A stretch of 64,000 nucleotides of DNA from assembly GCA_003151625.1 (NCBI GenBank), contig PLYC01000010.1, forward strand, positions 4,283-68,282, in the 5' to 3' direction. The notes under the pieces are model-generated. The model saw only the letters and a list, made by a program, of their open reading frames with translations, had not been told where the DNA came from and did not search any database. This DNA comes from Candidatus Doudnabacteria bacterium (lineage in GTDB: Bacteria > Patescibacteriota > Doudnabacteria > UBA920). The position numbers were made by a program, and so were the translations under genes. Positions 1 through 57,173 of this stretch are shown here, one piece after another (the first letter of the stretch is position 1; each line of letters opens with the position of its first letter).

Positions 1-2929
1 CAACCTTTTTGTGTTCCTCTTTAAAGCGGTCGAATTTAATTGTTTCCACCACCAGCCGCATAAGTTCTAAAAGTTCCTGTTTTAATTTTATTACATCATC
101 CGGGGTGGCTAGCTCTTCTTCCAAGAAGAGTTTTTGCTTTTCCTGCAAATACCAGTATTTAAGGCCCACAACTTTTTCTTTTAAATATTTCTGTGCCGCC
201 CACTGGTAAATATAGAGTTGGTCGATGTCCTTTTTTCCGGATTTCTTTGGAAGCTTTCCTGTTTTATAGTCATAAATTATAAGACCCTGGTCGTTCAAAT
301 CTGCGCGGTCAATTCTGCCGACTAGCCTGAATTTATCCAAAAATAAAATAAAAGACTGTTCAATATATTTTGGCCTCGGCATATTAGCAACGCATTCGTC
401 GTAGAATTGCTTTAGCATTTGTTTGCCCTGTTTAAAGTAATCTTCTTTTTGTTTTTTTGTCTGGTACCATTCGTCTACCCAGTTTTTTTCGTAGAGTTTT
501 TCCAAAGACTCAAAGCTGGGCAAAACCGGGACGGTTTTACTTTTGCCAAACAAATCTTGTTGGGCAAAAGTTGTTGAGTCTTTAAACTCCCGCAAGTACT
601 CTTCAAAAACTTTGTGGATGGTGTTGCCAAAACTTAAATATTGGCTGCCCTGCACCGGGAGCTTTAAATAATATTGATATTTATATTTTAGCGGGCAGGT
701 TTCAAAATCTTTTAGCTGCGAATACGAAAATTTTTCGGGTAAAGTTAAAAAAACCTGCTCTTTTTTTGAAGCTTGCTTGTTAAAAACAACTTTACCGGTG
801 GCTTTAGTAGCTTTTTCGCTTGGGATTAATCCGGACTCGACTAAAAATTGCGAAGGTTTTTTATTTAGTTTACCGCCGTAATCTTTTGACCAGGTTAAAA
901 ACAGATTTTGTTTAGCTCGGGTAATCGCAACATAAAATAGTCGCCTTTCTTCCTGTAAATGGAAATCGCCTTGCGGTAAAATGTCCTTTATAAGGTCTTT
1001 GGGGATTTCAATGGCATCTTTTTTACCCAGGGTCGGAAAGCGCTTGTCAACCAGGTTAATAACAAAAACATTTTCGAATTCAAGCCCTTTGGCGCTGTGG
1101 ACGGTTAAAACCTTCAGGCTCTCCGGGCCTGAATCGGGGTTAAAATTAATTTTGCCCTCGTCGCCGGCCTGTTCTTCCAGTTCCAGCGAACGTAAAAAGT
1201 TATGCACGCTTTTGTCTTTGGCCTGTCCTTCGTAATTTTCAATTTTTTTGTAGAATTGTTCTATTAATTCCCTGTTCTCGGCGTTCTCCTGAGTTTCGTC
1301 TTCCAGCCTTTCGGCCATCTTTAAATCTCGAATTATCTCTACGGTAGTTTCCGCGGCACTTTTTGTTTGAGAAAACGCGTGGTGTTTATGTAAATTTGAC
1401 GTGAGCAATTCCAACTTTTTTCTTGCCTGATCGGTGAGTAGGCTTCCAACTTTGAGTTGTTCTAAAGTTTCAAAGAGGGTCAGAGTTTTTTTGCGTGAAA
1501 ATTCTAAAATTGCCGCAATATCATTTACGCTTAATCGAAACAACGGAATGTTTAGGACGCGGTAAAGTGAAAAGGAGTCTTCGACATTGTCCAGTAATTT
1601 TAAGTAGGCAAGAAGATCTAAAATAATCGGCTTTTTATACAAACCGGTGTTGGCCAAAAAAGTGTGCGGTATTTGCGCGTTCTCCAGCGCCGGTAACAAT
1701 GATTCAGCCGCTCCGTTGCTTCTTATTAGGATAGCAAAATCATTCCAGGTATTCTTGGGTGATTTAAGTTTGATAATTTTTTTGACGACCTCATTTATTT
1801 CCGAATTTAAATCCGGAGCTTCTACAACTTCCACGGTTCCCTGGCTTTTCACGTTAGCCAAAAGTTCCTTATTGATTTTCAGTTTAATCTCCAGCCTGTC
1901 GGGGTTGTTCTGCTGGATAAATTTGTAGGCCAAATCCAAAATTTGTTTGCCGGAGCGGTAGTTTTCCACCAATGTTATTTCTTTTAATCCTGGATATTCG
2001 TCCTTAAACTTTAAAATATTGGAAACGCTGGCGCCGCGGAATTTGTAAATGGATTGGTCATCGTCCCCCACTACGGCCACATTTTGTTTGTCACCGGCCA
2101 GAAGTTTGACCAGCTGATATTGCGCGTAATTGGTGTCCTGGAACTCATCCACCATTAAATATTTAAATTTATTTTGGTAATATTTTAAAATTTGCGGGCG
2201 CTTTTGAAAAAGCAGAAGAGTGTAATTTATCAAGTCGCCAAAATCCAGGTAGTTATTATCCAGCAGAAGTTTTTGGTAGACGTGATAAGCGTTGGAGACT
2301 TCTTCCAGGCGGGAGATTTCGGTTTGATCAATTTCAGTGTAGTTAGCCGATTTATCGGCTGTTATTTGTGAGTCCATGAATGGGCTGGCTACAGCTTCCG
2401 CGCTGTCCGTCGATAATCTTAATCTCTCCGCGTACTCCAAATATTGCTCCGGGGTAATAAGTTCGTCTTTGCACTTGGAAAAATGCGAAAGCAAGCCGCC
2501 AATAAATTTGGCGGGGTTGCCAAGGGGTTTGTAGTAGTCCAAGTCAAATTTTTCAAAATTGTTGTAAATCAACACCCATTGTTTGGTTCCGTCGAGCAGT
2601 TCAAAATCGTTGGGCAGACCAATGTCCAAAGCATGAGTCTTTAAAATGCGCTCGCAAAAGCTGTGGAAAGTGGAAATCCAGGTATCTACGTAGCCAATGG
2701 GTAAAATTAAGTCGACCCGTTCCTGCATTTCCCCCGCGGCCTTATCGGTAAACGTTAACGCTAAAATTTCATCCGGTTTTGCCAATTTTTGTTCTATTAA
2801 ATAAGCAATTCGCCTCGTAATCACAGTTGTCTTCCCCGTCCCCGCACCAGCCACTATCAAAAGCGGCCCGTTTCCATGGGTAACGGCACTTTCTTGCTCT
2901 TTATTTAAATTTTTCAATAACTCTTTCAT
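1..2929 (-). CDS. UvrD/PcrA-type superfamily I DNA helicase fused to a C-terminal PD-(D/E)xK (RecB/Cas4-like) nuclease domain. The N-terminus is at 2929; the extreme C-terminus runs off the window start.
   Basis: My own translation of the minus strand from the ATG at 2927-2929: MKELLKNLNKEQESAVTHGNGPLLIVAGAGTGKTTVITRRIAYL (Walker A GAGTGKT), then helicase motifs continuing for >950 aa. Near the window start: RIDRADLNDQG..IYDYKTGK..QLYIYQWAA, i.e. D..D/EYK nuclease motifs plus QxxxY. It is absent from the ORF track because it is truncated by the window edge. Confidence 0.7.
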   Translation of the reverse strand, partial: MKELLKNLNKEQESAVTHGNGPLLIVAGAGTGKTTVITRRIAYLIEQKLAKPDEILALTFTDKAAGEMQERVDLILPIGYVDTWISTFHSFCERILKTHALDIGLPNDFELLDGTKQWVLIYNNFEKFDLDYYKPLGNPAKFIGGLLSHFSKCKDELITPEQYLEYAERLRLSTDSAEAVASPFMDSQITADKSANYTEIDQTEISRLEEVSNAYHVYQKLLLDNNYLDFGDLINYTLLLFQKRPQILKYYQNKFKYLMVDEFQDTNYAQYQLVKLLAGDKQNVAVVGDDDQSIYKFRGASVSNILKFKDEYPGLKEITLVENYRSGKQILDLAYKFIQQNNPDRLEIKLKINKELLANVKSQGTVEVVEAPDLNSEINEVVKKIIKLKSPKNTWNDFAILIRSNGAAESLLPALENAQIPHTFLANTGLYKKPIILDLLAYLKLLDNVEDSFSLYRVLNIPLFRLSVNDIAAILEFSRKKTLTLFETLEQLKVGSLLTDQARKKLELLTSNLHKHHAFSQTKSAAETTVEIIRDLKMAERLEDETQENAENRELIEQFYKKIENYEGQAKDKSVHNFLRSLELEEQAGDEGKINFNPDSGPESLKVLTVHSAKGLEFENVFVINLVDKRFPTLGKKDAIEIPKDLIKDILPQGDFHLQEERRLFYVAITRAKQNLFLTWSKDYGGKLNKKPSQFLVESGLIPSEKATKATGKVVFNKQASKKEQVFLTLPEKFSYSQLKDFETCPLKYKYQYYLKLPVQGSQYLSFGNTIHKVFEEYLREFKDSTTFAQQDLFGKSKTVPVLPSFESLEKLYEKNWVDEWYQTKKQKEDYFKQGKQMLKQFYDECVANMPRPKYIEQSFILFLDKFRLVGRIDRADLNDQGLIIYDYKTGKLPKKSGKKDIDQLYIYQWAAQKYLKEKVVGLKYWYLQEKQKLFLEEELATPDDVIKLKQELLELMRLVVETIKFDRFKEEHKKV

Positions 2930-2997
2930 CGACTTTTTTAAATTTATAACTTTTAATTAATAACCAACAACCCAAAACCGCTGTTATAAGTTATAAA

Positions 2998-3444
2998 TTA
3001 TTTCTTATTAGTTATAAACTTTGTCCACTGCTTCCACAAATCCATACCGTCGTCTTTATAATTCGCCCAAAATTGCGCGGGATTGGTGATTTTTACGCCG
3101 TGATAGTTTTCAATGCTTAATAATGCGTTATCAGATGTTACCAAATACTCAGCCTTGGCTTCCACGGCACTTTCCAAAATTTTATTATCTTCCGGATCCG
3201 ACACTACCCGAATTTGCCTACGATTAACAACCCAATTAATTTGGGCGAATAAATCGTTTAGCTCTTTTTGGTAAGCATCGTTGTTTATCAACTGACCGCT
3301 TATTAGTCTATTCTCCTGCAAGGTCTGCCTGTTGGCAAAAGCCTCAATTTCTCCGGCGATAACCGCGTCTATAATTTTTTTTTCGTAAGAATATTCGTCT
3401 TTAAACCCGTTTATTAATACATTGGTATCGAGGACTATTTTCAT
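2998..3444 (-). CDS. PIN-domain ribonuclease (VapC-like toxin)
   Basis: N-terminus MKIVLDTNVLI, with conserved acidic residues (DPEDNKILE, LVTSD) spaced as in PIN domains. 148 aa. Its start overlaps the stop of the upstream small ORF by 4 nt (ATGA). Confidence 0.65.
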   Translation of the reverse strand: MKIVLDTNVLINGFKDEYSYEKKIIDAVIAGEIEAFANRQTLQENRLISGQLINNDAYQKELNDLFAQINWVVNRRQIRVVSDPEDNKILESAVEAKAEYLVTSDNALLSIENYHGVKITNPAQFWANYKDDGMDLWKQWTKFITNKK

Positions 3445-6289: not shown

Positions 6290-6665
6290 GTAAAATCTGT
6301 CACGATTTTAGAATTATAAGCACTTATTCGCCCCGTACCAGTCGTATGACTCCGGTGCAGGGCATAAACCAGTCGCCCATTCAGCACTCACAGTATCCAC
6401 TTAATTGGTTTGTGGCTGTGCCATAAACCGGAGCGAACACAGTGAGCGACTGGTTTATGGTTGCGGGACCCGGACTCGAACCGGGAACCTCAAGGTTATG
6501 CATACCACTACAACTTTAATTGCTTCGCAAAATTGCGAATTTGTGGTCTGGACTTTCTCTTTACCCCGACAAATTGTCTGGGTATCTACCATTAAGTCTC
6601 TACACCTTCTCCAAAAAATAAGCCGGAGCTTGGCTCGGGATTACCACCGCTAAGGGCTTCCCCGA
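6290..6665 (-). ncRNA. Candidate structured RNA upstream of and co-oriented with tRNA-Met/tRNA-Asp (possibly RNase P RNA; identity unresolved)
   Basis: No credible ORF; the track ORF 6405..6653 is low-complexity. Minus-sense contains AGAAAGUCCAGACC (resembles the RNase P CR-I/P4 5' strand GGAAAGUCCGG), a UGAAUG..CUGGUUUAU segment (resembles CR-IV/V ..GAUGAAUG..CCGGCUUAU), a 14-bp inverted repeat cataaaccagtcgc/gcgactggtttatg, and a tRNA-like T-arm + acceptor 3' strand + CCA (ggttcccggttcgagtccgggtcccgcaACCA, plus-strand 6451-6483) that lacks a matching 5' acceptor strand. Confidence 0.25.
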
Positions 6666-6937
6666 ATTTGATAGATTATCACGCTGGAATTACTCCCTGC
6701 GTAGCCCATTTAAAGATTAGTTACAAGCGGAGCTAAAAAAACTAACCATACTAACAACTTGAGCCTTGCGAGCTGCCAATTGCTCTATCCCGCAAATACA
6801 GTTTACAATAATTCAATAAAAAAAGCAACACCAAGCGGTTTTTTAGGTTTGTGAACATCAAAGTCCAAGTAAAAAGGCCTTATTTACACTAACGTTAAGC
6901 CGACATTAGTGTAAATGAATGATTTATTGCGAAATAA

Positions 6938-52010: not shown

Positions 52011-54753
52011 GGCATTTTTTAAACTTCTTTCCGCTGCCACAGGGGCAACGGTCGTTACGGCCAACGCCTTCGTATTTGGGGTCGCCCGATGGGTTTGACG
52101 AAGAAGAGACCGAACCGTCCGACAAATTTGTCATTAAATTCTTGGGTAAACTTTGGACGGGGCGAGGTTGGACGTTTACGGAAATGTGGAAAATACTACT
52201 GACAATTTGCTTGTTAATTTCTTTAAGCAACGTCTGGAACATTTGGTAGCCTTCTTTTTTATATTCCACCAGCGGGTCGCGCTGGCCGTAGCCGCGCAAA
52301 CGAACACTGTCGCGTAAATGATCCATAGTATCTAAATGATCCATCCACAAATTGTCTAACGCCTGCAAAGCCACATAGCGCTGGGCGCCTTCGAATATTT
52401 CCTTGCCTAATTCTTTTTCCCTGGCTTCCCAAATATCACTGGCCGATTTGTATAAACAATCAGCCACGGCAAAATCCTGGTCAGCGGCATTCTCGTATTC
52501 GACCTTGGCCTTTTTTTGCAACTCCGGGGTTACAGGAATTATGGCCTGCACCGATTTAAACAAATTGTCCCAATCGCGCTTTTCATTGCCGTTTTCATCG
52601 ACAATGTTTAAATTAAATTCCACCAACTCGGAAAGTTCGTCACGGACTAGATTTAAGATTTCGGATTTAAGATTTAAGGGCTTTTTTACCGTTTTTTCCA
52701 AATCGCCATCGTCATCACCGGTTTTTACATCCGATTCCAAAACAGGCTCCGTGCCTAAATAGACCCTACGTTTTTTGTAAATATGATTGCGCTGGTGGTT
52801 TAAGACATCATCAAATTCCAAAACGTGCTTTCTGGTGTCAAAGTTTAAGCCTTCAATCTTTTTTTGCGCCGACTCAATGCTTCTGGAAACCATTTTGGCT
52901 TCTATAGGCTGTTCATCGGGCAAGCCTAAAGACGTCATAAGGCTTTTCATGCGCTCGCCGCCAAAAAGACGCATAAGGTCGTCTTCCATACTGACAAAAA
53001 ATTGGGATGATCCCGGGTCGCCCTGGCGCCCGGCACGACCTCTTAACTGGTTGTCTATACGGCGCGATTCATGCCGTTCCGTTCCCAGAATATGCAAACC
53101 TCCTGCCGCCAAAACCAGTTTAGCTTCCTCGGGATCTACCGGGTTGCCGCCCAAAAGAATGTCAACTCCGCGCCCGGCAATGTTGGTGGCCAGTGTAATT
53201 TGTTTTAACCGGCCAGCCTGGGAAATAATGTGCGCTTCTCTCTCGTGGTTCTTGGCGTTTAAAATTTCAAATTGCAGTCCCTCTTTTTTTAGCACTTCAG
53301 CCAGCATTTCGTTTTTGGCAATGCTAACTGTGCCGATTAATATCGGCTGGCCTCTTTTGTTCCGCTCTTTTACTTCCAGCGCAATAGCGTTAAACTTGGC
53401 GGTTTCGGTTTTATAAACCACGTCCGGCTTGTCTTCCCTAACCATGGGTTTGTTGGTGGGAATTTGTTCAACGGTTAACTGATAAATTTTAAAGAATTCC
53501 TCTTCTTCGGTTTTGGCCGTTCCGGTCATGCCGGACAAAAATTTATACAAACGAAATAAATTTTGAAATGTGATGGTGGCTAAAGTTTTGCTTTCGGCCT
53601 GAATTTTAACGCCTTCTTTGGCTTCTATGGCCTGGTGCAAACCCTCGCTATAGCGCCGACCGAACATTAGCCGGCCGGTGAATTCGTCCACAATAATTAT
53701 TTCACCGTCGCGCACCACATAGTCTCGGTCTTTTTTAAACAAACCTCGGGCGCGCACAGCCTGTTCAATATGATGGATGGTGGTTACGCCTTTGGAAGTA
53801 TCATAAATATTCGGCACTTTTAAAATGGCCTCGATTTTATTTATGCCTTCATCGGTTAAGCTGGCGGCTTTGTGTTTTTCGTCAACCGTATAATCCTTTT
53901 CTTCTTCCAACCCGTCCACCATTCTGGCAAATTCATAATACTTGCTGGTAGGTTCGGTGTCGGGCATGCTAATAATAAGAGGCGTACGGGCTTCATCTAT
54001 TAAAATGCTGTCTACCTCGTCCACAATCGCGTAAAACAAATCCCGTTGGACAAGCTGGTTGGTACTCTGCACCATGTTGTCGCGCAAATAATCAAAACCG
54101 TATTCGTTATTGGTGCCATAAGTAATATCCGCGGCGTAAGCCTCGCGCCTGGAAATCGGACGCATATGCTTAACGTCTAAAACTAGTCCTTGGGTCTCGT
54201 CCTCTAATTTATCGATTTCTTCCTGTTCGGGCTTGTACTCCGGATCATATAAAAAAGAAGCCTCGTGCTGAATGGAAGCTACCGATAATCCCAAATAATG
54301 ATAAATTGGCCCCATTAAACTGGCCTGCCACCGTGCCAAATAATCGTTTACGGTGACCAAATGCGCGCCTTTACCGGCCAAAGCGTACAGAACCAGGGCT
54401 AAGGTAGCAGTGTTGGTTTTTCCTTCACCGGTCTTCATTTCCGCGATTTTATTGTTTGCCAAAGCCGCGCCGCCGATAATTTGCACGTCAAAATTAAATT
54501 TATCGATTGTCCGTTTGGCCGTCTCGCGAGTTAAGGCAAATACCCGAGGCTGAATTTTTTCCAATTCCTTTTTGATTTCGTTTTTTTCCGTTAAATCCTT
54601 AAGCTGAATTTTGAAATCTGAAATTTCTTTTTTGATTTGCTCCTGGCTCAAAGCCGCAACCTCGTCTTTAAAATCATTAACCGCCTCCAGTTGTGAACTG
54701 TAAGTCTCCAGGGCGCTTTTTTGCAATCCAAATATTTTTGATATAAATGACAT
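51994..54753 (-). CDS. secA: Preprotein translocase ATPase SecA
   Basis: 919 aa, DEAD-like motor motifs, and the C-terminal zinc finger RCPCGSGKKFKKCHGKNI. Confidence 0.95.
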   Translation of the reverse strand: MSFISKIFGLQKSALETYSSQLEAVNDFKDEVAALSQEQIKKEISDFKIQLKDLTEKNEIKKELEKIQPRVFALTRETAKRTIDKFNFDVQIIGGAALANNKIAEMKTGEGKTNTATLALVLYALAGKGAHLVTVNDYLARWQASLMGPIYHYLGLSVASIQHEASFLYDPEYKPEQEEIDKLEDETQGLVLDVKHMRPISRREAYAADITYGTNNEYGFDYLRDNMVQSTNQLVQRDLFYAIVDEVDSILIDEARTPLIISMPDTEPTSKYYEFARMVDGLEEEKDYTVDEKHKAASLTDEGINKIEAILKVPNIYDTSKGVTTIHHIEQAVRARGLFKKDRDYVVRDGEIIIVDEFTGRLMFGRRYSEGLHQAIEAKEGVKIQAESKTLATITFQNLFRLYKFLSGMTGTAKTEEEEFFKIYQLTVEQIPTNKPMVREDKPDVVYKTETAKFNAIALEVKERNKRGQPILIGTVSIAKNEMLAEVLKKEGLQFEILNAKNHEREAHIISQAGRLKQITLATNIAGRGVDILLGGNPVDPEEAKLVLAAGGLHILGTERHESRRIDNQLRGRAGRQGDPGSSQFFVSMEDDLMRLFGGERMKSLMTSLGLPDEQPIEAKMVSRSIESAQKKIEGLNFDTRKHVLEFDDVLNHQRNHIYKKRRVYLGTEPVLESDVKTGDDDGDLEKTVKKPLNLKSEILNLVRDELSELVEFNLNIVDENGNEKRDWDNLFKSVQAIIPVTPELQKKAKVEYENAADQDFAVADCLYKSASDIWEAREKELGKEIFEGAQRYVALQALDNLWMDHLDTMDHLRDSVRLRGYGQRDPLVEYKKEGYQMFQTLLKEINKQIVSSIFHISVNVQPRPVQSLPKNLMTNLSDGSVSSSSNPSGDPKYEGVGRNDRCPCGSGKKFKKCHGKNI

Positions 54754-54973
54754 TAAAATTAGTGCTTAGTAATTAAGGAATAGTGCTTAGAGTAAAGCAG
54801 ATACAAAGTATTATAACAGAATAGGCGATAAATAAAAAGGGGTTCGAAGCATAATAAATGTCTTTCAATTTTGATAAAATTTTGGCAAATTGAAGGCGGG
54901 GTTGGAATAAAATTAATATCTTTTATTACTTTACCCCGCCGCTTTGCCTTCTCGCTTCCAAGTGCATCGGCGC

Positions 54974-55249
54974 TTAGACAACGCTTTCAGCGACTGCCTT
55001 CGCTTCCGGTCTGCATAACAGCAGGTTCAGCGATACAACCATTGAAGGTTTGTTGCATGTTGCGCAACGGGTTGTGTGGCCGGCTCCGGTCAGGTGTAGG
55101 CAGTCCTCGAACAACCACACAATACCAGGCGCGCCGCCTTTGAGCTTATCCAGCAAGCTCTGTTGGTTTCTGTCGAGGACGACAAGAGCCTCCAGCCTTT
55201 GGACAACTTCTAAGTACTTTACCGCTTGTTGCTGCGTAGCAGGTGACAT
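54974..55249 (-). CDS. Small ORF X3 in the GC-rich cassette (91 aa, perfect AAGGAG Shine-Dalgarno)
   Basis: ccttAAGGAGaaacgATG; the protein has a Cys/His cluster HTTRCATCNKP. Compositionally distinct from flanking genes. Confidence 0.3.
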   Translation of the reverse strand: MSPATQQQAVKYLEVVQRLEALVVLDRNQQSLLDKLKGGAPGIVWLFEDCLHLTGAGHTTRCATCNKPSMVVSLNLLLCRPEAKAVAESVV

Positions 55250-55509
55250 CGTTTCTCCTTAAGGATGTAATTGCCGGGATTAGCCGACTCAAACTAAAAA
55301 ACTTCCGCCTTCGTTAAGGTCGGAAGTTCGGAGTCGATGAGGGTTTTACGCTTTGTTTATCAACTCAAAATTTCCAAGCTCAACGCCCAGCGTAAAATAA
55401 AAATAGAAATTTTGAGTTAAATTATGCATTTCCATTATTTTAGCAGGTTTGTATATATTGTCAAATTATGTACTGTTGTCAAATTATTAAAGAGGAAGCC
55501 GCCCGCCTC

Positions 55510-55698
55510 CTATGTTCCGGATTTGGGCGGCTTTTGCTTGCGAGGTTTGAACCCGAATCTCTTCCTAAAGGAAGAAACGGTCATTTTCTCCGACGTGAGA
55601 TCCGTGGAAGCCCCTGCGTACAGGGTTTTCCTCCGGTAAGTTACGGTCAAACTGCCGCTTGGCAGCCATTCGTAGTTATGAAGTTCGCAGCTATTCAT
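55510..55698 (-). CDS. Small ORF X2 in the GC-rich cassette (62 aa, GGAGGG Shine-Dalgarno)
   Basis: ctGGAGGGtctATGaat; basic C-terminus RKRFGFKPRKQKPPKSGT. Confidence 0.25.
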   Translation of the reverse strand: MNSCELHNYEWLPSGSLTVTYRRKTLYAGASTDLTSEKMTVSSFRKRFGFKPRKQKPPKSGT

Positions 55699-55928
55699 AG
55701 ACCCTCCAGTCCGTGCGACAAGCCAGCACTCTTGTTCGCGATGTAAATTTGTGCTGGTGATTAAGCAATTAAGTGCCCAATCATCAAAACAAATCTTGGG
55801 GGTGAAGAAGGTCACCCCGGCCTTTGACTACAGTGCAAAGCACGAATTGATGAAATCAGTCGTTTGTGCGTCATTTATTTTTCGTTGAAGGCCCTCTACG
55901 CATCGGAGGCAAGACATTTTCCCTGTTG

Positions 55929-56088
55929 TCAAACAGTCCATTGAATATTCACGGCCTTTTCTGCTCTACTTGACTGCCGATTACGATTTGCGTAGTTACC
56001 ATATGTTTTTCGGTATTGTCGGCTCATTGCCGTAAATCGAAACTGCTCTTGTTCGAATTGTGTTTTAAGCTGTGCCAATGTAGACATC
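55929..56088 (-). CDS. Small ORF X1 in the GC-rich cassette (52 aa, AAGGAG Shine-Dalgarno)
   Basis: ccAAGGAGaacagATG; preceded by the palindrome tgcaaatatttgca at 56221-56234. Confidence 0.25.
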
Positions 56089-56340
56089 TGTTCTCCTTGG
56101 GCGAGCGGCTGCCAGCGCGCAATAATCCGCTCTGTAGTGTTTGCGCTGGCGAGGCATCCCAAATAAAAAGGAGGCGGCGTCAGTGCAAATAAAAAACACC
56201 CTTGGGCAAAACCCGCGGGTGCAAATATTTGCACTTTTGAAGGGCTTGCCTAGGAGGCCACCCACCAAACTAAGTTAATACTTTGTGACAAAATCTTCAT
56301 ATCTGTATACTATACCAATGTGGATCCTTTGTCAACTACT

Positions 56341-56352
56341 GTACTAGTACAC
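56341..56352. promoter_or_regulatory. TrpR-type operator palindrome TGTACTAGTACA (distal copy)
   Basis: A perfect 12-bp palindrome embedded in the 23-nt direct repeat ctactgtactagtacactaatac. It contains the CTAG core of the Escherichia coli trp operator half-site GTACTAGT. Confidence 0.5.
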
Positions 56353-56433
56353 TAATACATACGATTTAGGCGACTTTTGATCCAACCAACAGGTTGTCCA
56401 CAGCCCTTGAAACAAAACCCGCAACGTGCTACT

Positions 56434-56445
56434 GTACTAGTACAT
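56434..56445. promoter_or_regulatory. TrpR-type operator palindrome TGTACTAGTACA (proximal copy, 14 nt upstream of the ATG)
   Basis: Second copy of the same 23-nt repeat, ctactgtactagtacattaatgc. Confidence 0.5.
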
Positions 56446-56458
56446 TAATGCTACGAAT

Positions 56459-56746
56459 ATGAAATATGTACATGAGTATGGAGTGGAGTTGGAGGAGTTG
56501 ATTAAAAAAGCTTCTAAAAGCCAAGCGTTGTTACATGAATTTTTGTTCGATTTGCTGTCCCCCGCCGAATACAAAGACTTGGCAGTTAGGTGGCAAATTG
56601 TCAAACAGCTACAGAAAGGGCTTTCCCAAAGAGACATCGCCAAAAACCTCAAAGTAAGTATTTCAACAGTTACAAGAGGCTCCAGGGAAATGCTAAACAA
56701 AAAAGGCGGATTTTCCCAACTACTAAACAAACATTATTCAAAGTAA
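56459..56746 (+). CDS. TrpR/YerC/YecD-family transcriptional regulator
   Basis: LLSPAEYKDLAVRWQIVKQLQKGLSQRDIAKNLKVSISTVTRGSRE matches the Trp-repressor-like HTH fold family. Confidence 0.65.
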   Translation: MKYVHEYGVELEELIKKASKSQALLHEFLFDLLSPAEYKDLAVRWQIVKQLQKGLSQRDIAKNLKVSISTVTRGSREMLNKKGGFSQLLNKHYSK

Positions 56747-56852
56747 ACAAATTAACACAAATTAGGAACTAGTATGCACAAAACACGAATCTAATGTGAT
56801 TCGTGTTTATTAGTGCAGTATTAGTGTTAATTTGTATCCTTTAATTTGTATC

Positions 56853-57173
56853 TTAATGTATTTTTGACCTTCTGCGCCTAAGACTAACCTGCTTGTCTTT
56901 GTGGCGGGTTAGCTGTTCCTTAATTTTAGGCATTACCAAGTCAAAGGCCGCGTAAATATCCAGCCCCCGGGCTTCGGCAAAATGTCCTTTGGGCTGGATG
57001 TCTATTTCCGCTCGAAACGGCGGTTCGTTTTTGCGTTTTTTCTCAACTTCTATTTCCACGCGAATTTTATCTTCCGAGCGGAAGAACACTTCCAGTGTTT
57101 TAAGCTTATCTTCAATATAGTTTTTTATTGACGGCGTTAAGGTGGTGTTGGTGGCTTTTATATTTATGTTCAT
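56853..57173 (-). CDS. hpf: Ribosome hibernation promoting factor (HPF/RaiA family, short form)
   Basis: [42 protein letters not shown], typical of S30AE. Confidence 0.8.

Follow-up and report, generated by a model that had tools for sequence, protein, structure and literature searches.

The 64-kb window analysed here (64,000 nucleotides (nt) of contig PLYC01000010.1 from a Candidatus Doudnabacteria bacterium) carries on its plus strand a gene for a TrpR-like protein of 95 amino acids (aa) and, divergent from it on the minus strand, a predicted operon that opens with a short leader open reading frame (ORF) containing two adjacent Trp codons and continues with two small ORFs, ORF-A and ORF-B, each behind a copy of an RNA motif. 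The intergenic region holds two copies of the 12-bp palindrome TGTACTAGTACA, one in the distal element termed Op1 and one in the proximal element termed Op2 (Table 1). The original prediction, made from the letters of the window alone, described the palindromes and the repressor gene as a self-contained autoregulatory switch. The distal copy, however, adjoins the -35 of the divergent promoter and so belongs to a promoter region with its own leader, attenuator and operon. The switch is thus not self-contained and, as far as sequence can tell, forms one of the two halves of a tryptophan control region that is divergent and works at two levels.

The palindrome and its conservation in relatives

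Exact copies of TGTACTAGTACA were found only in Op1 and Op2, while by an arithmetic estimate 64 kb should contain an exact match to such a 12-mer palindrome ~0.004 times. With up to two mismatches allowed, there were three matches in the window compared with 0.88 expected, and none of 100 shuffled sequences reached three. As first noticed, each copy is contained in a 23-nt direct repeat (CTACTGTACTAGTACACTAATAC in Op1 and CTACTGTACTAGTACATTAATGC in Op2), the two being identical at 21 of 23 positions and 93 bp apart from start to start. The distance to the gene also stands: 49 homologues share the N-terminus M-x-Y-x-H-E-Y-G, with near-invariant M1 and Y3, which supports the ATG at 56459 as the right start codon and therefore places the end of the proximal palindrome 14 nt before it. 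The proposed match to an E. coli trp operator half-site was borne out by the K-12 sequence, from which the trp promoter, operator and trpL were taken: GTACTAGT is found in the operator GAACTAGTTAACTAGTAC on the opposite strand.

Forty-seven related loci, 323 kb in all, were fetched from species-representative genomes, including those of Doudna-, Uhr-, Harrison-, Yanofsky- and Wildermuthbacteria and of Paceibacterota. The 10-bp core GTACTAGTAC has 51 exact copies in this sequence where ~0.3 would be expected, nearly all of them directly upstream of a trpR-like gene or in neighbouring or trp-related promoters. The proximal operator keeps its place in the relatives (core between -25 and -45 relative to the trpR ATG), and the distal operator is always 4-5 nt away from a minus-strand TTGACA. 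Like a TrpR-type operator, the element is a palindrome built on CTAG-centred GNACTAGTNC units, both in the window and in the relatives, and its extended consensus is the 18-bp palindrome yAgYGTACTAGTACRcTr. The flanks resemble weaker copies of the core unit, shifted by 8 bp, which is the spacing of the CTAG units in E. coli. TrpR binds in tandem at the E. coli trp operator, and by analogy the weaker flanking sites may allow tandem dimers here as well.

The core also changes together with the protein. Recognition helices of the type (S/A)T(V/I)TRG are paired with GTACTAGTAC, while helices containing Lys (SISKVTRG and SLSKITRG, in loci L026, L030, L027 and L043) are paired with GTACTGGTAC or GTACAGGTAC. 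Collectively, the conservation upstream of homologues in very divergent Patescibacteria and the co-variation with the recognition helix support the earlier suggestion that the palindrome behaves as the operator of the repressor. We also noted further operator variants, GCACTAGTGC in L003, L005 and L015 and GTGCTAGCAC in L008.

The 95-aa protein resembles TrpR rather than YerC

The product of the plus-strand ORF matched the Pfam family Trp_repressor (PF01371) with an E-value of 3e-19 and 69.3 bits (cut-off 27) over profile positions 6-87 of 88, and a phmmer search of the PDB sequences retrieved only E. coli TrpR entries. An AlphaFold2 model computed from the 49-sequence alignment has six helices and a predicted local distance difference test score (pLDDT) of 92. 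The best Foldseek matches to this model were the E. coli TrpR structures 1tro, 1zt9 and 1trr (TM-scores 0.66-0.69, 30-32% identity), of which 1tro and 1trr are TrpR-operator complexes. For the YerC-like Firmicutes structures 3frw, 3g1c and 3kor, in contrast, identity was 18-23%, so that by Foldseek identities the protein is not closer to the YerC/YecD subfamily than to TrpR. Of the label TrpR/YerC-like given to it at first, the TrpR half therefore holds (~31% identity and the PF01371 match) and the YerC half does not, and we regard the protein, on these comparisons, as a true TrpR-type repressor.

The similarity extends to the residues expected to read DNA. The segment SQRDIAKNLKVSISTVTRGS of helices D and E aligns with the DNA-reading segment of E. 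coli TrpR, and the recognition helix reads ISTVTRGS, compared with IATITRGS in E. coli. Equivalents of E. coli R69, I79, T81, T83, R84, R54 and G85 are kept, and T44 is replaced conservatively by Ser; the roles in DNA reading and in the ligand pocket are those that we take these residues to have in the TrpR and TrpR-operator structures. Across the 49 homologues R58 and R73 never vary, at least 90% keep T70 and G74, and the equivalents of R54 and R84 are invariant. A wider search returned 146 sequence homologues, mostly from metagenomes, and the few with names are from Patescibacteria (Doudnabacteria, Patescibacteria group).

The proximal operator overlaps the predicted trpR promoter

The original prediction had the proximal copy placed so as to occlude the promoter, and this fits what we found. 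The last bases of the predicted trpR -10 are the first bases of Op2, and transcription is predicted to start near 56442. The arrangement is conserved: an operator precedes trpR in 40 loci, and in 24 of these a -35-like hexamer is followed at 17-18 nt by TAnnGT, the final GT of which starts the operator core, and in three further loci the operator lies in the promoter spacer. Since Op2 overlaps both the -10 and the predicted start of a conserved promoter, the site fits autorepression. A plus-strand promoter at Op1 was considered and rejected, as its TTGTCA would require a 13-nt spacer.

Just upstream of the trpR -35 lies a DnaA-box-like element. Of 48 loci, 22 had the sequence TTATCCACA or a one-mismatch variant within 200 nt upstream of trpR, in most cases on the plus strand and at -65 to -92, corresponding to ~10-fold enrichment relative to the remainder of the loci. 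Its position in many lineages is 1-20 nt upstream of the -35 of the operator-bearing promoter (L001 3935, L003 3911, L011 3934, L023 4637 and L035 4301, among others). This enrichment upstream of the -35 suggests that a second factor, possibly DnaA, acts at the TrpR-operator promoters.

The distal operator adjoins a divergent promoter with a Trp leader and a predicted attenuator

A promoter scan identified the minus-strand promoter P_L, which matches the consensus at 10 of 12 positions. The order of operator, 4-5 nt, TTGACA, 17-nt spacer, -10, 6-9 nt and leader ATG recurs in at least 14 relatives. The leader ATG of the window, at 56300, is six nt after the -10 of P_L, and P_L transcripts are predicted to begin at this ATG or within 1-3 nt of it. 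Tandem or near-tandem Trp codons (WW or WxW, at codons 11-14) are found in the leaders of 12 of 13 modelled relatives, the remaining one having a single Trp codon, while the other residues diverge. In two loci, L023 and L025, an operator lies directly over the start of the WW leader.

The RNA that follows the leader folds with -35.8 kcal/mol (z -2.55 relative to shuffled sequences). In a constraint-folding model of a ribosome stalled on the Trp codons, blocking the RNA that it would cover converted the terminator to an antiterminator in 9 of 13 loci, that of the window included, and masking up to the leader stop codon brought the terminator back. The relatives have a CTTTGC / GCAAAG / CTTTGC triple in which the middle segment has two possible partners, one upstream and the other formed by the loop and 3´ arm of the terminator, and they keep the leader terminator with differing stem sequences. 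In the window the WW leader contains a perfect 16-bp palindrome, GTGCAAATATTTGCAC at 56219-56234, which lies between segment 2 and the terminator and forms the central hairpin of the predicted antiterminator. A simple terminator scanner missed the terminator at ~56222-56188, probably because of an internal loop.

Table 1. Features of the trpR-like gene region and the divergent operon (positions in the 64-kb window)
Feature	Position	Strand	Description
trpR-like gene	56459..56746	+	95 aa; six-helix TrpR fold supported by Pfam, PDB sequences and AlphaFold2/Foldseek
Predicted trpR promoter	56407..56435	+	-35 TTGAAA 56407-56412; 17-nt spacer; -10 TACTGT 56430-56435
DnaA-box-like element	56394..56402	+	TTGTCCACA; just upstream of the trpR -35
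Op2, proximal operator	56429..56451		Core TGTACTAGTACA 56433-56444; weaker 8-bp-shifted site ACATTAATGC
Op1, distal operator	56336..56358		Core TGTACTAGTACA 56340-56351; flanked by weaker 8-bp-shifted CAACTACTGT and ACACTAATAC
Divergent promoter P_L	56307..56335	-	-35 TTGACA 56335-56330; 17-nt spacer; -10 TAGTAT 56312-56307
Leader ORF	56250..56300	-	MKILSQSINLVWWVAS*; predicted leaderless; 16 codons; tandem Trp codons 56267-56262
Attenuator RNA	56186..56250	-	Segment 2 (GGCAAGCCC) has two possible partners, segment 1 and the loop and arm of the terminator
Intrinsic terminator	~56222-56188	-	CACCCGCGGGTTTTGCCCAAGGGTG and T-run; inside the attenuator RNA
RNA motif copy 1	56085..56150	-	5´ untranslated region (UTR); GCCAGCGCAAA...GCGCTGGC, CCGCTC pairing with loop GAGCGG, then Shine-Dalgarno (SD) sequence and ATG; covariance model R1, E 4e-10
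ORF-A	55929..56087	-	52 aa; ribosome-binding site AAGGAG; no family match
Hairpin	55800..55819	-	GC-rich GGGGTGACCTTCTTCACCCC and T-rich tract, read directly; between ORF-A and motif copy 2
RNA motif copy 2	55696..55758	-	5´ UTR; covariance model R1, E 1e-14
ORF-B	55510..55698	-	62 aa; rare small-protein family
Hairpin	56781..56808		AAACACGAATC / GATTCGTGTTT (inverted repeats I1 and I23); separates the trpR-like gene from hpf, which is convergent with it; likely to terminate in both directions

Tryptophan genes accompany the system in relatives

The relatives connect the repressor gene and the WW leader to genes of tryptophan metabolism. Downstream of trpR we found trpE, trpG and trpD in L026, trpB in L030, and trpC followed by trpB in L046, and TrpD-like genes were present in L021, L032, L037 and L038. 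In L005 the WW leader is followed by a 133-aa protein and then by TrpB2 (712 bits to NF009057), and the same order was seen by eye in L007. A Trp/Tyr-type tRNA synthetase gene, trpS, lies directly upstream of trpR on the same strand in L023 (scored) and L025 (by eye), and in both the trpS-trpR pair is followed by the operator and WW leader. DAHP (3-deoxy-D-arabino-heptulosonate 7-phosphate) synthase is encoded further along the divergent operon in L003 and L015.

Because trp genes adjoin the repressor gene or the WW leader in these loci, tryptophan is the likely ligand, and from this linkage we infer that the effector of the repressor in the window is most probably L-tryptophan. The ligand and regulon, left unnamed at first, can thus be given in part: trpE/G/D/B/C, trpB2, trpS and DAHP synthase make tryptophan the probable ligand, and the window would hold at least one regulon member.

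Other genes beside the system were recorded as well. A protein of the DUF6875 family is encoded further downstream in L023, and the DUF6875 and synthetase coordinates are L023 3051-3998, L025 1751-2698, L036 4601-5248 and L023 5230-5949; the DUF6875 proteins downstream of operator-bearing promoters are candidate new members of the Trp regulon. The protein between the WW leader and TrpB2 (L005 2910-3311, minus strand; L007 by eye) is one of a conserved set of 133-144 aa with a DGHHR motif that had no match in Pfam, and in L010 an internal operator is followed by a similar protein of 135 aa (2913-3320, minus strand). ParB/Srx-like serine kinases supply O-phosphoserine to TrpB2-type enzymes.

The operon in the window consists of small ORFs and a two-stem RNA motif

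ORF-A and ORF-B have good ribosome-binding sites, and each follows a 63-66-nt RNA motif. Stem 1 of the motif is formed by CCAGCRC and GYGCTGG (CCAGCRCAAA...GYGCTGG). In stem 2 the loop pairs with the tail directly after stem 1, and the sequence changes while complementarity is kept, as in GAGCGG/CCGCTC, GCGAaCAAG/CTTGTCGC and CGGACAA/TTGTCCG. For 17 copies this complementarity gave a Fisher combined p of 4e-13 relative to shuffled tails, a value for which related copies overstate independence. The linker between the stems is 0-1 nt, which makes a classical H-type pseudoknot sterically doubtful, and the stems may therefore be alternatives to each other. A T-box-like UGG specifier in the stem 2 loop was dropped as an explanation, since L004 and L014 have no UGG.

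The covariance model R1 found 21-23 copies of the motif in 387 kb, two of them in the window and at least 19 in L001-L019. All copies are in operons divergent from trpR-like genes, and a weak match in L047 overlaps the start of a trpR match. The motif precedes the ATG of a tiny ORF by 59-67 nt, or by ~95 nt in two copies with an inserted hairpin. No Rfam family matched it, either in a gathering-threshold scan of the window or at E ≤ 5 over 54700-56900. Pairing in trans between the terminated WW-leader RNA and the motif, by analogy to rnTrpL, was rejected because the duplex energies were no better than those of shuffled sequences. Internal operators were seen 25-75 nt upstream of motif copies, inside long palindromes (L016 1030-1067, L010 1509 and 3367, L011 3273 and L019 3670; the one in L016 is a 38-bp perfect palindrome, CCTTTTGCATCATCGTACTAGTACGATGATGCAAAAGG), and these palindromes may mark internal promoters or RNA hairpins.

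ORF-B had no match in Pfam and no homologue in a word-indexed search, while an exhaustive search of 1.84 billion representative proteins returned eight homologues, none annotated. The family shares the pattern YELxS..W....L.V.FR.K.FFAG.S...E....F...FG, and its members are ~60 aa long with a basic Pro/Lys tail. In one homologue, P0121, the gene call extends N-terminally into translated RNA motif.

A second predicted leaderless attenuator was found at 55296-55464 on the minus strand, with the promoter TTGACA, 16 nt, TAAAAT. Its leader, MHNLTQNFYFYFTLGVELGNFELINKA, begins at 55429 and is rich in Phe and Tyr, and its aromatic codons lie within a 17-bp hairpin, after which comes a terminator (z -5.8); Rfam gave only a chance-level Phe_leader match. 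The leader is kept in ten loci. In L003 and L015 the next gene downstream of it is that for DAHP synthase, while in the window it precedes ORF-C (54974-55249, minus strand), which encodes 91 aa and has no family match.

Across the 1.7 kb from 54754 to 56458 there is no ORF longer than ~100 aa, and a gene caller would see a non-coding gap. Packed into it are both attenuators, the two copies of the RNA motif, three small ORFs and a number of terminators, and its GC content reaches 0.54 at 54950-55250. On the other side of the repressor gene, hpf (56853-57173, minus strand; a ribosome hibernation factor, Pfam Ribosomal_S30AE) is convergent with it, and in ~20 Doudnabacteria-group loci a convergent ORF of ~103-113 aa at the same position is presumed to be hpf. 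Elsewhere in the window, 1.1 kb free of ORFs beside the tRNA-Asp and tRNA-Met genes contains a group I intron (6526-6728, minus strand; 66.9 bits in Rfam), and ARAGORN found no interrupted tRNA.

A model for tryptophan-responsive control and its alternatives

We propose, with a probability of roughly 0.78, that 56.2-56.75 kb is an E. coli-type control region, divergent and responsive to tryptophan, in which TrpR repression is combined with leader attenuation. The 95-aa protein would act as a dimer whose L-tryptophan-loaded form binds the palindrome GTACTAGTAC. On Op2 it would cover the -10 and the predicted start of trpR, giving negative autoregulation, and from Op1, which abuts the -35, it would repress the strong divergent promoter P_L. 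With charged tRNA-Trp scarce, a ribosome would stall on the WW codons, segment 2 and the terminator loop and arm would form the antiterminator, and transcription would read through, while with tRNA-Trp plentiful the terminator would form. Because repressor and attenuator would both act on transcription from P_L, the ORF-A/ORF-B operon would be expressed only in tryptophan shortage, under two-level control like that of the E. coli trp operon.

Several observations weigh against this model. All of the transcription start sites are predictions from consensus hexamers, and the predicted ~17-nt trpR 5´ UTR has no SD sequence. Four of the 13 leaders showed no structure switch under the simple masking. 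A search with Rfam Trp_leader gave no match (E ≤ 5, 54700-56900); by the folding model the window element works like trpL while standing outside that sequence family. The window has no gene for tryptophan biosynthesis, salvage or a tRNA synthetase, as judged by tblastn with the enzymes from the relatives. The core of Op1 occupies -41 to -50 relative to P_L, which puts it upstream of the -35 and clear of both the -10 and +1; repression from there would need the weak flanking sites or steric effects, and activation or no role at all may be the case instead. Finally, the pocket positions N87 and S88 of E. coli TrpR are replaced by Arg and Glu, both near-invariant in the clade, and the ligand could therefore differ.

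These pocket changes favor a repressor that responds to a compound different from L-tryptophan (indole, an indole acid or some other aromatic) or needs no ligand to bind DNA. Engineered E. coli variants at T44, T81, N87 and S88 bind indole-3-acetic acid, according to the titles of PDB entries, and relatives couple the system to trpB2, which encodes an indole-using enzyme. However, the arginines that would sandwich the indole, equivalent to R54 and R84, do not vary, the leader on the same control region reads Trp codons, and the neighboring genes in the relatives span the whole trp pathway as well as trpS. We give a different ligand, or none, a small but real chance. Another alternative concerns Op1, which leaves the -10 and +1 of P_L uncovered. 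If both palindromes served only to autoregulate trpR, by cooperative binding or by looping between Op1 and Op2, the leader operon would be controlled by attenuation alone, and the 93-bp spacing of the sites, ~9 helical turns, is a classical looping geometry. Among the relatives, however, core spacing ranges from 72 to 108 bp without helical phasing, and it is the distance from the distal site to the minus-strand TTGACA that is fixed. Of the loci examined, those distant relatives for which no divergent leader promoter was found have a single operator upstream of trpR, and in L023 and L025 the operator sits on the WW leader start itself. Exclusive trpR autoregulation by the two sites is, in our view, rather improbable.

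Op1 could also be an activator site from which the repressor, bound at about -45, recruits RNA polymerase to P_L; its center is ~45.5 nt upstream of the predicted start (-45.5), near the positions of class II activators. Activation by the Trp-loaded protein would, however, oppose the attenuator, which stops the operon when tryptophan is abundant, and P_L should not need an activator because it has near-consensus hexamers and a 17-nt spacer. Such a role is distinctly improbable. The last alternative, a generic repeat or restriction-related sequence, could point to the perfect palindrome with its SpeI (ACTAGT) and RsaI (GTAC) sites. A palindrome common throughout the genome irrespective of context would have spoken for it. 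Instead the window has two copies, both in one intergenic region, the sites in the 323 kb of relatives are concentrated in promoters of trpR or trp-linked genes, and the core co-varies with the recognition helix, by which this reading is effectively refuted. The tryptophan-responsive control region thus remains our preferred reading. The sequences themselves show the family and fold, the conserved motif and its co-variation with the protein, the overlap with the promoter, the WW leader, the alternative RNA structures and the trp genes beside the system in relatives; Trp as the ligand, the start sites, the direction of regulation from Op1 and attenuation itself are the steps that we infer.

Bacteria of the candidate phyla radiation (CPR), also called Patescibacteria, are thought to be metabolically minimal and host-dependent, and to our knowledge almost nothing is known of their gene regulation. 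The data suggest that the textbook E. coli logic of a Trp-loaded repressor and leader attenuation is widespread in the CPR, with essentially the same DNA half-site and with attenuation from predicted leaderless transcripts. The locus would offer a ready-made sensor of tryptophan supply in uncultivated symbionts, and where biosynthetic genes have been lost, the starvation signal would have small unannotated proteins and an uncatalogued RNA motif as its output. Of the leads at the locus, the RNA motif is the most novel, together with the tiny ORFs. A broader idea, tentative and rather unlikely to hold in full, is that the TrpR/WW-attenuator operon is an unrecognised aromatic-amino-acid starvation module of the CPR, with arrays of tiny, fast-diverging proteins each behind a covarying two-state RNA whose second stem would compete or form a pseudoknot, that this RNA is possibly a riboswitch of a new kind, or else a translational switch that responds to a protein, with a tie to Trp status, and that the DnaA-box-like element possibly links the promoters to the replication initiator.

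Comparison with known systems

A literature search found no work on TrpR, leader peptides or the RNA motif in the CPR, nor on GTACTAGTAC. Among the closest known systems is that of E. coli. Its TrpR shares with the window protein the Pfam family, the fold, ~31% identity and the recognition-helix motif TxTRGS; its trp operator shares the GTACTAGT / ACTAGTAC element with Op1 and Op2; and it, too, has an operator over the promoter of the repressor gene, giving autoregulation. E. coli TrpR represses trpEDCBA, mtr, trpR, aroL and aroH, and reconstructed TrpR regulons have been reported for gammaproteobacterial lineages only (PMC5343134). Trp genes and DAHP synthase recur in the relatives of the window locus, whereas the window host belongs to the Patescibacteria and the regulated genes in the window are tiny ORFs without known function. 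The E. coli operator consists of two CTAG units 8 bp apart, while each window site is one perfect 10-12 bp CTAG-centered palindrome. Op1 also differs in lying upstream of the -35, and the pocket differs at N87/S88, as described above.

The leader resembles E. coli trpL in being a short ORF whose two Trp codons stand next to each other towards its end (MKILSQSINLVWWVAS in the window), in having antiterminator and terminator hairpins that exclude each other, with a T-run behind them, as modelled in the window, and in being transcribed from a promoter under TrpR control, as predicted for the window. It differs in that trpL has a 26-nt 5´ UTR with an SD sequence, while the window leader is predicted to be leaderless with its ATG 6-9 nt after the -10, and in that the downstream genes in the 64-kb window are not biosynthetic. 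Chlamydia trachomatis, whose TrpR is the second case that has been studied, is another host-dependent bacterium with a reduced genome and a TrpR repressor. There, however, trpR is co-transcribed with trpBA and subject to additional control by the iron repressor YtgR, whereas trpR in the window is monocistronic and divergent from the leader operon.

Proteins of the YerC/YecD type have the Pfam family and the six-helix fold in common with the window protein, but differ in the low identity given above and in the recognition helix, which we take to be ATISRVNRSL in YerC and not TxTRGS. We know of no established operator or ligand for them. A further parallel comes from mycobacteria, where, going by the abstract of the study, leaderless polycysteine short ORFs are Cys-responsive attenuators of downstream operonic genes (bioRxiv 10.1101/834739). 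As far as that abstract allows the comparison, the two systems are alike in having a leaderless short ORF rich in one amino acid, and differ in the phylum and in the amino acid.

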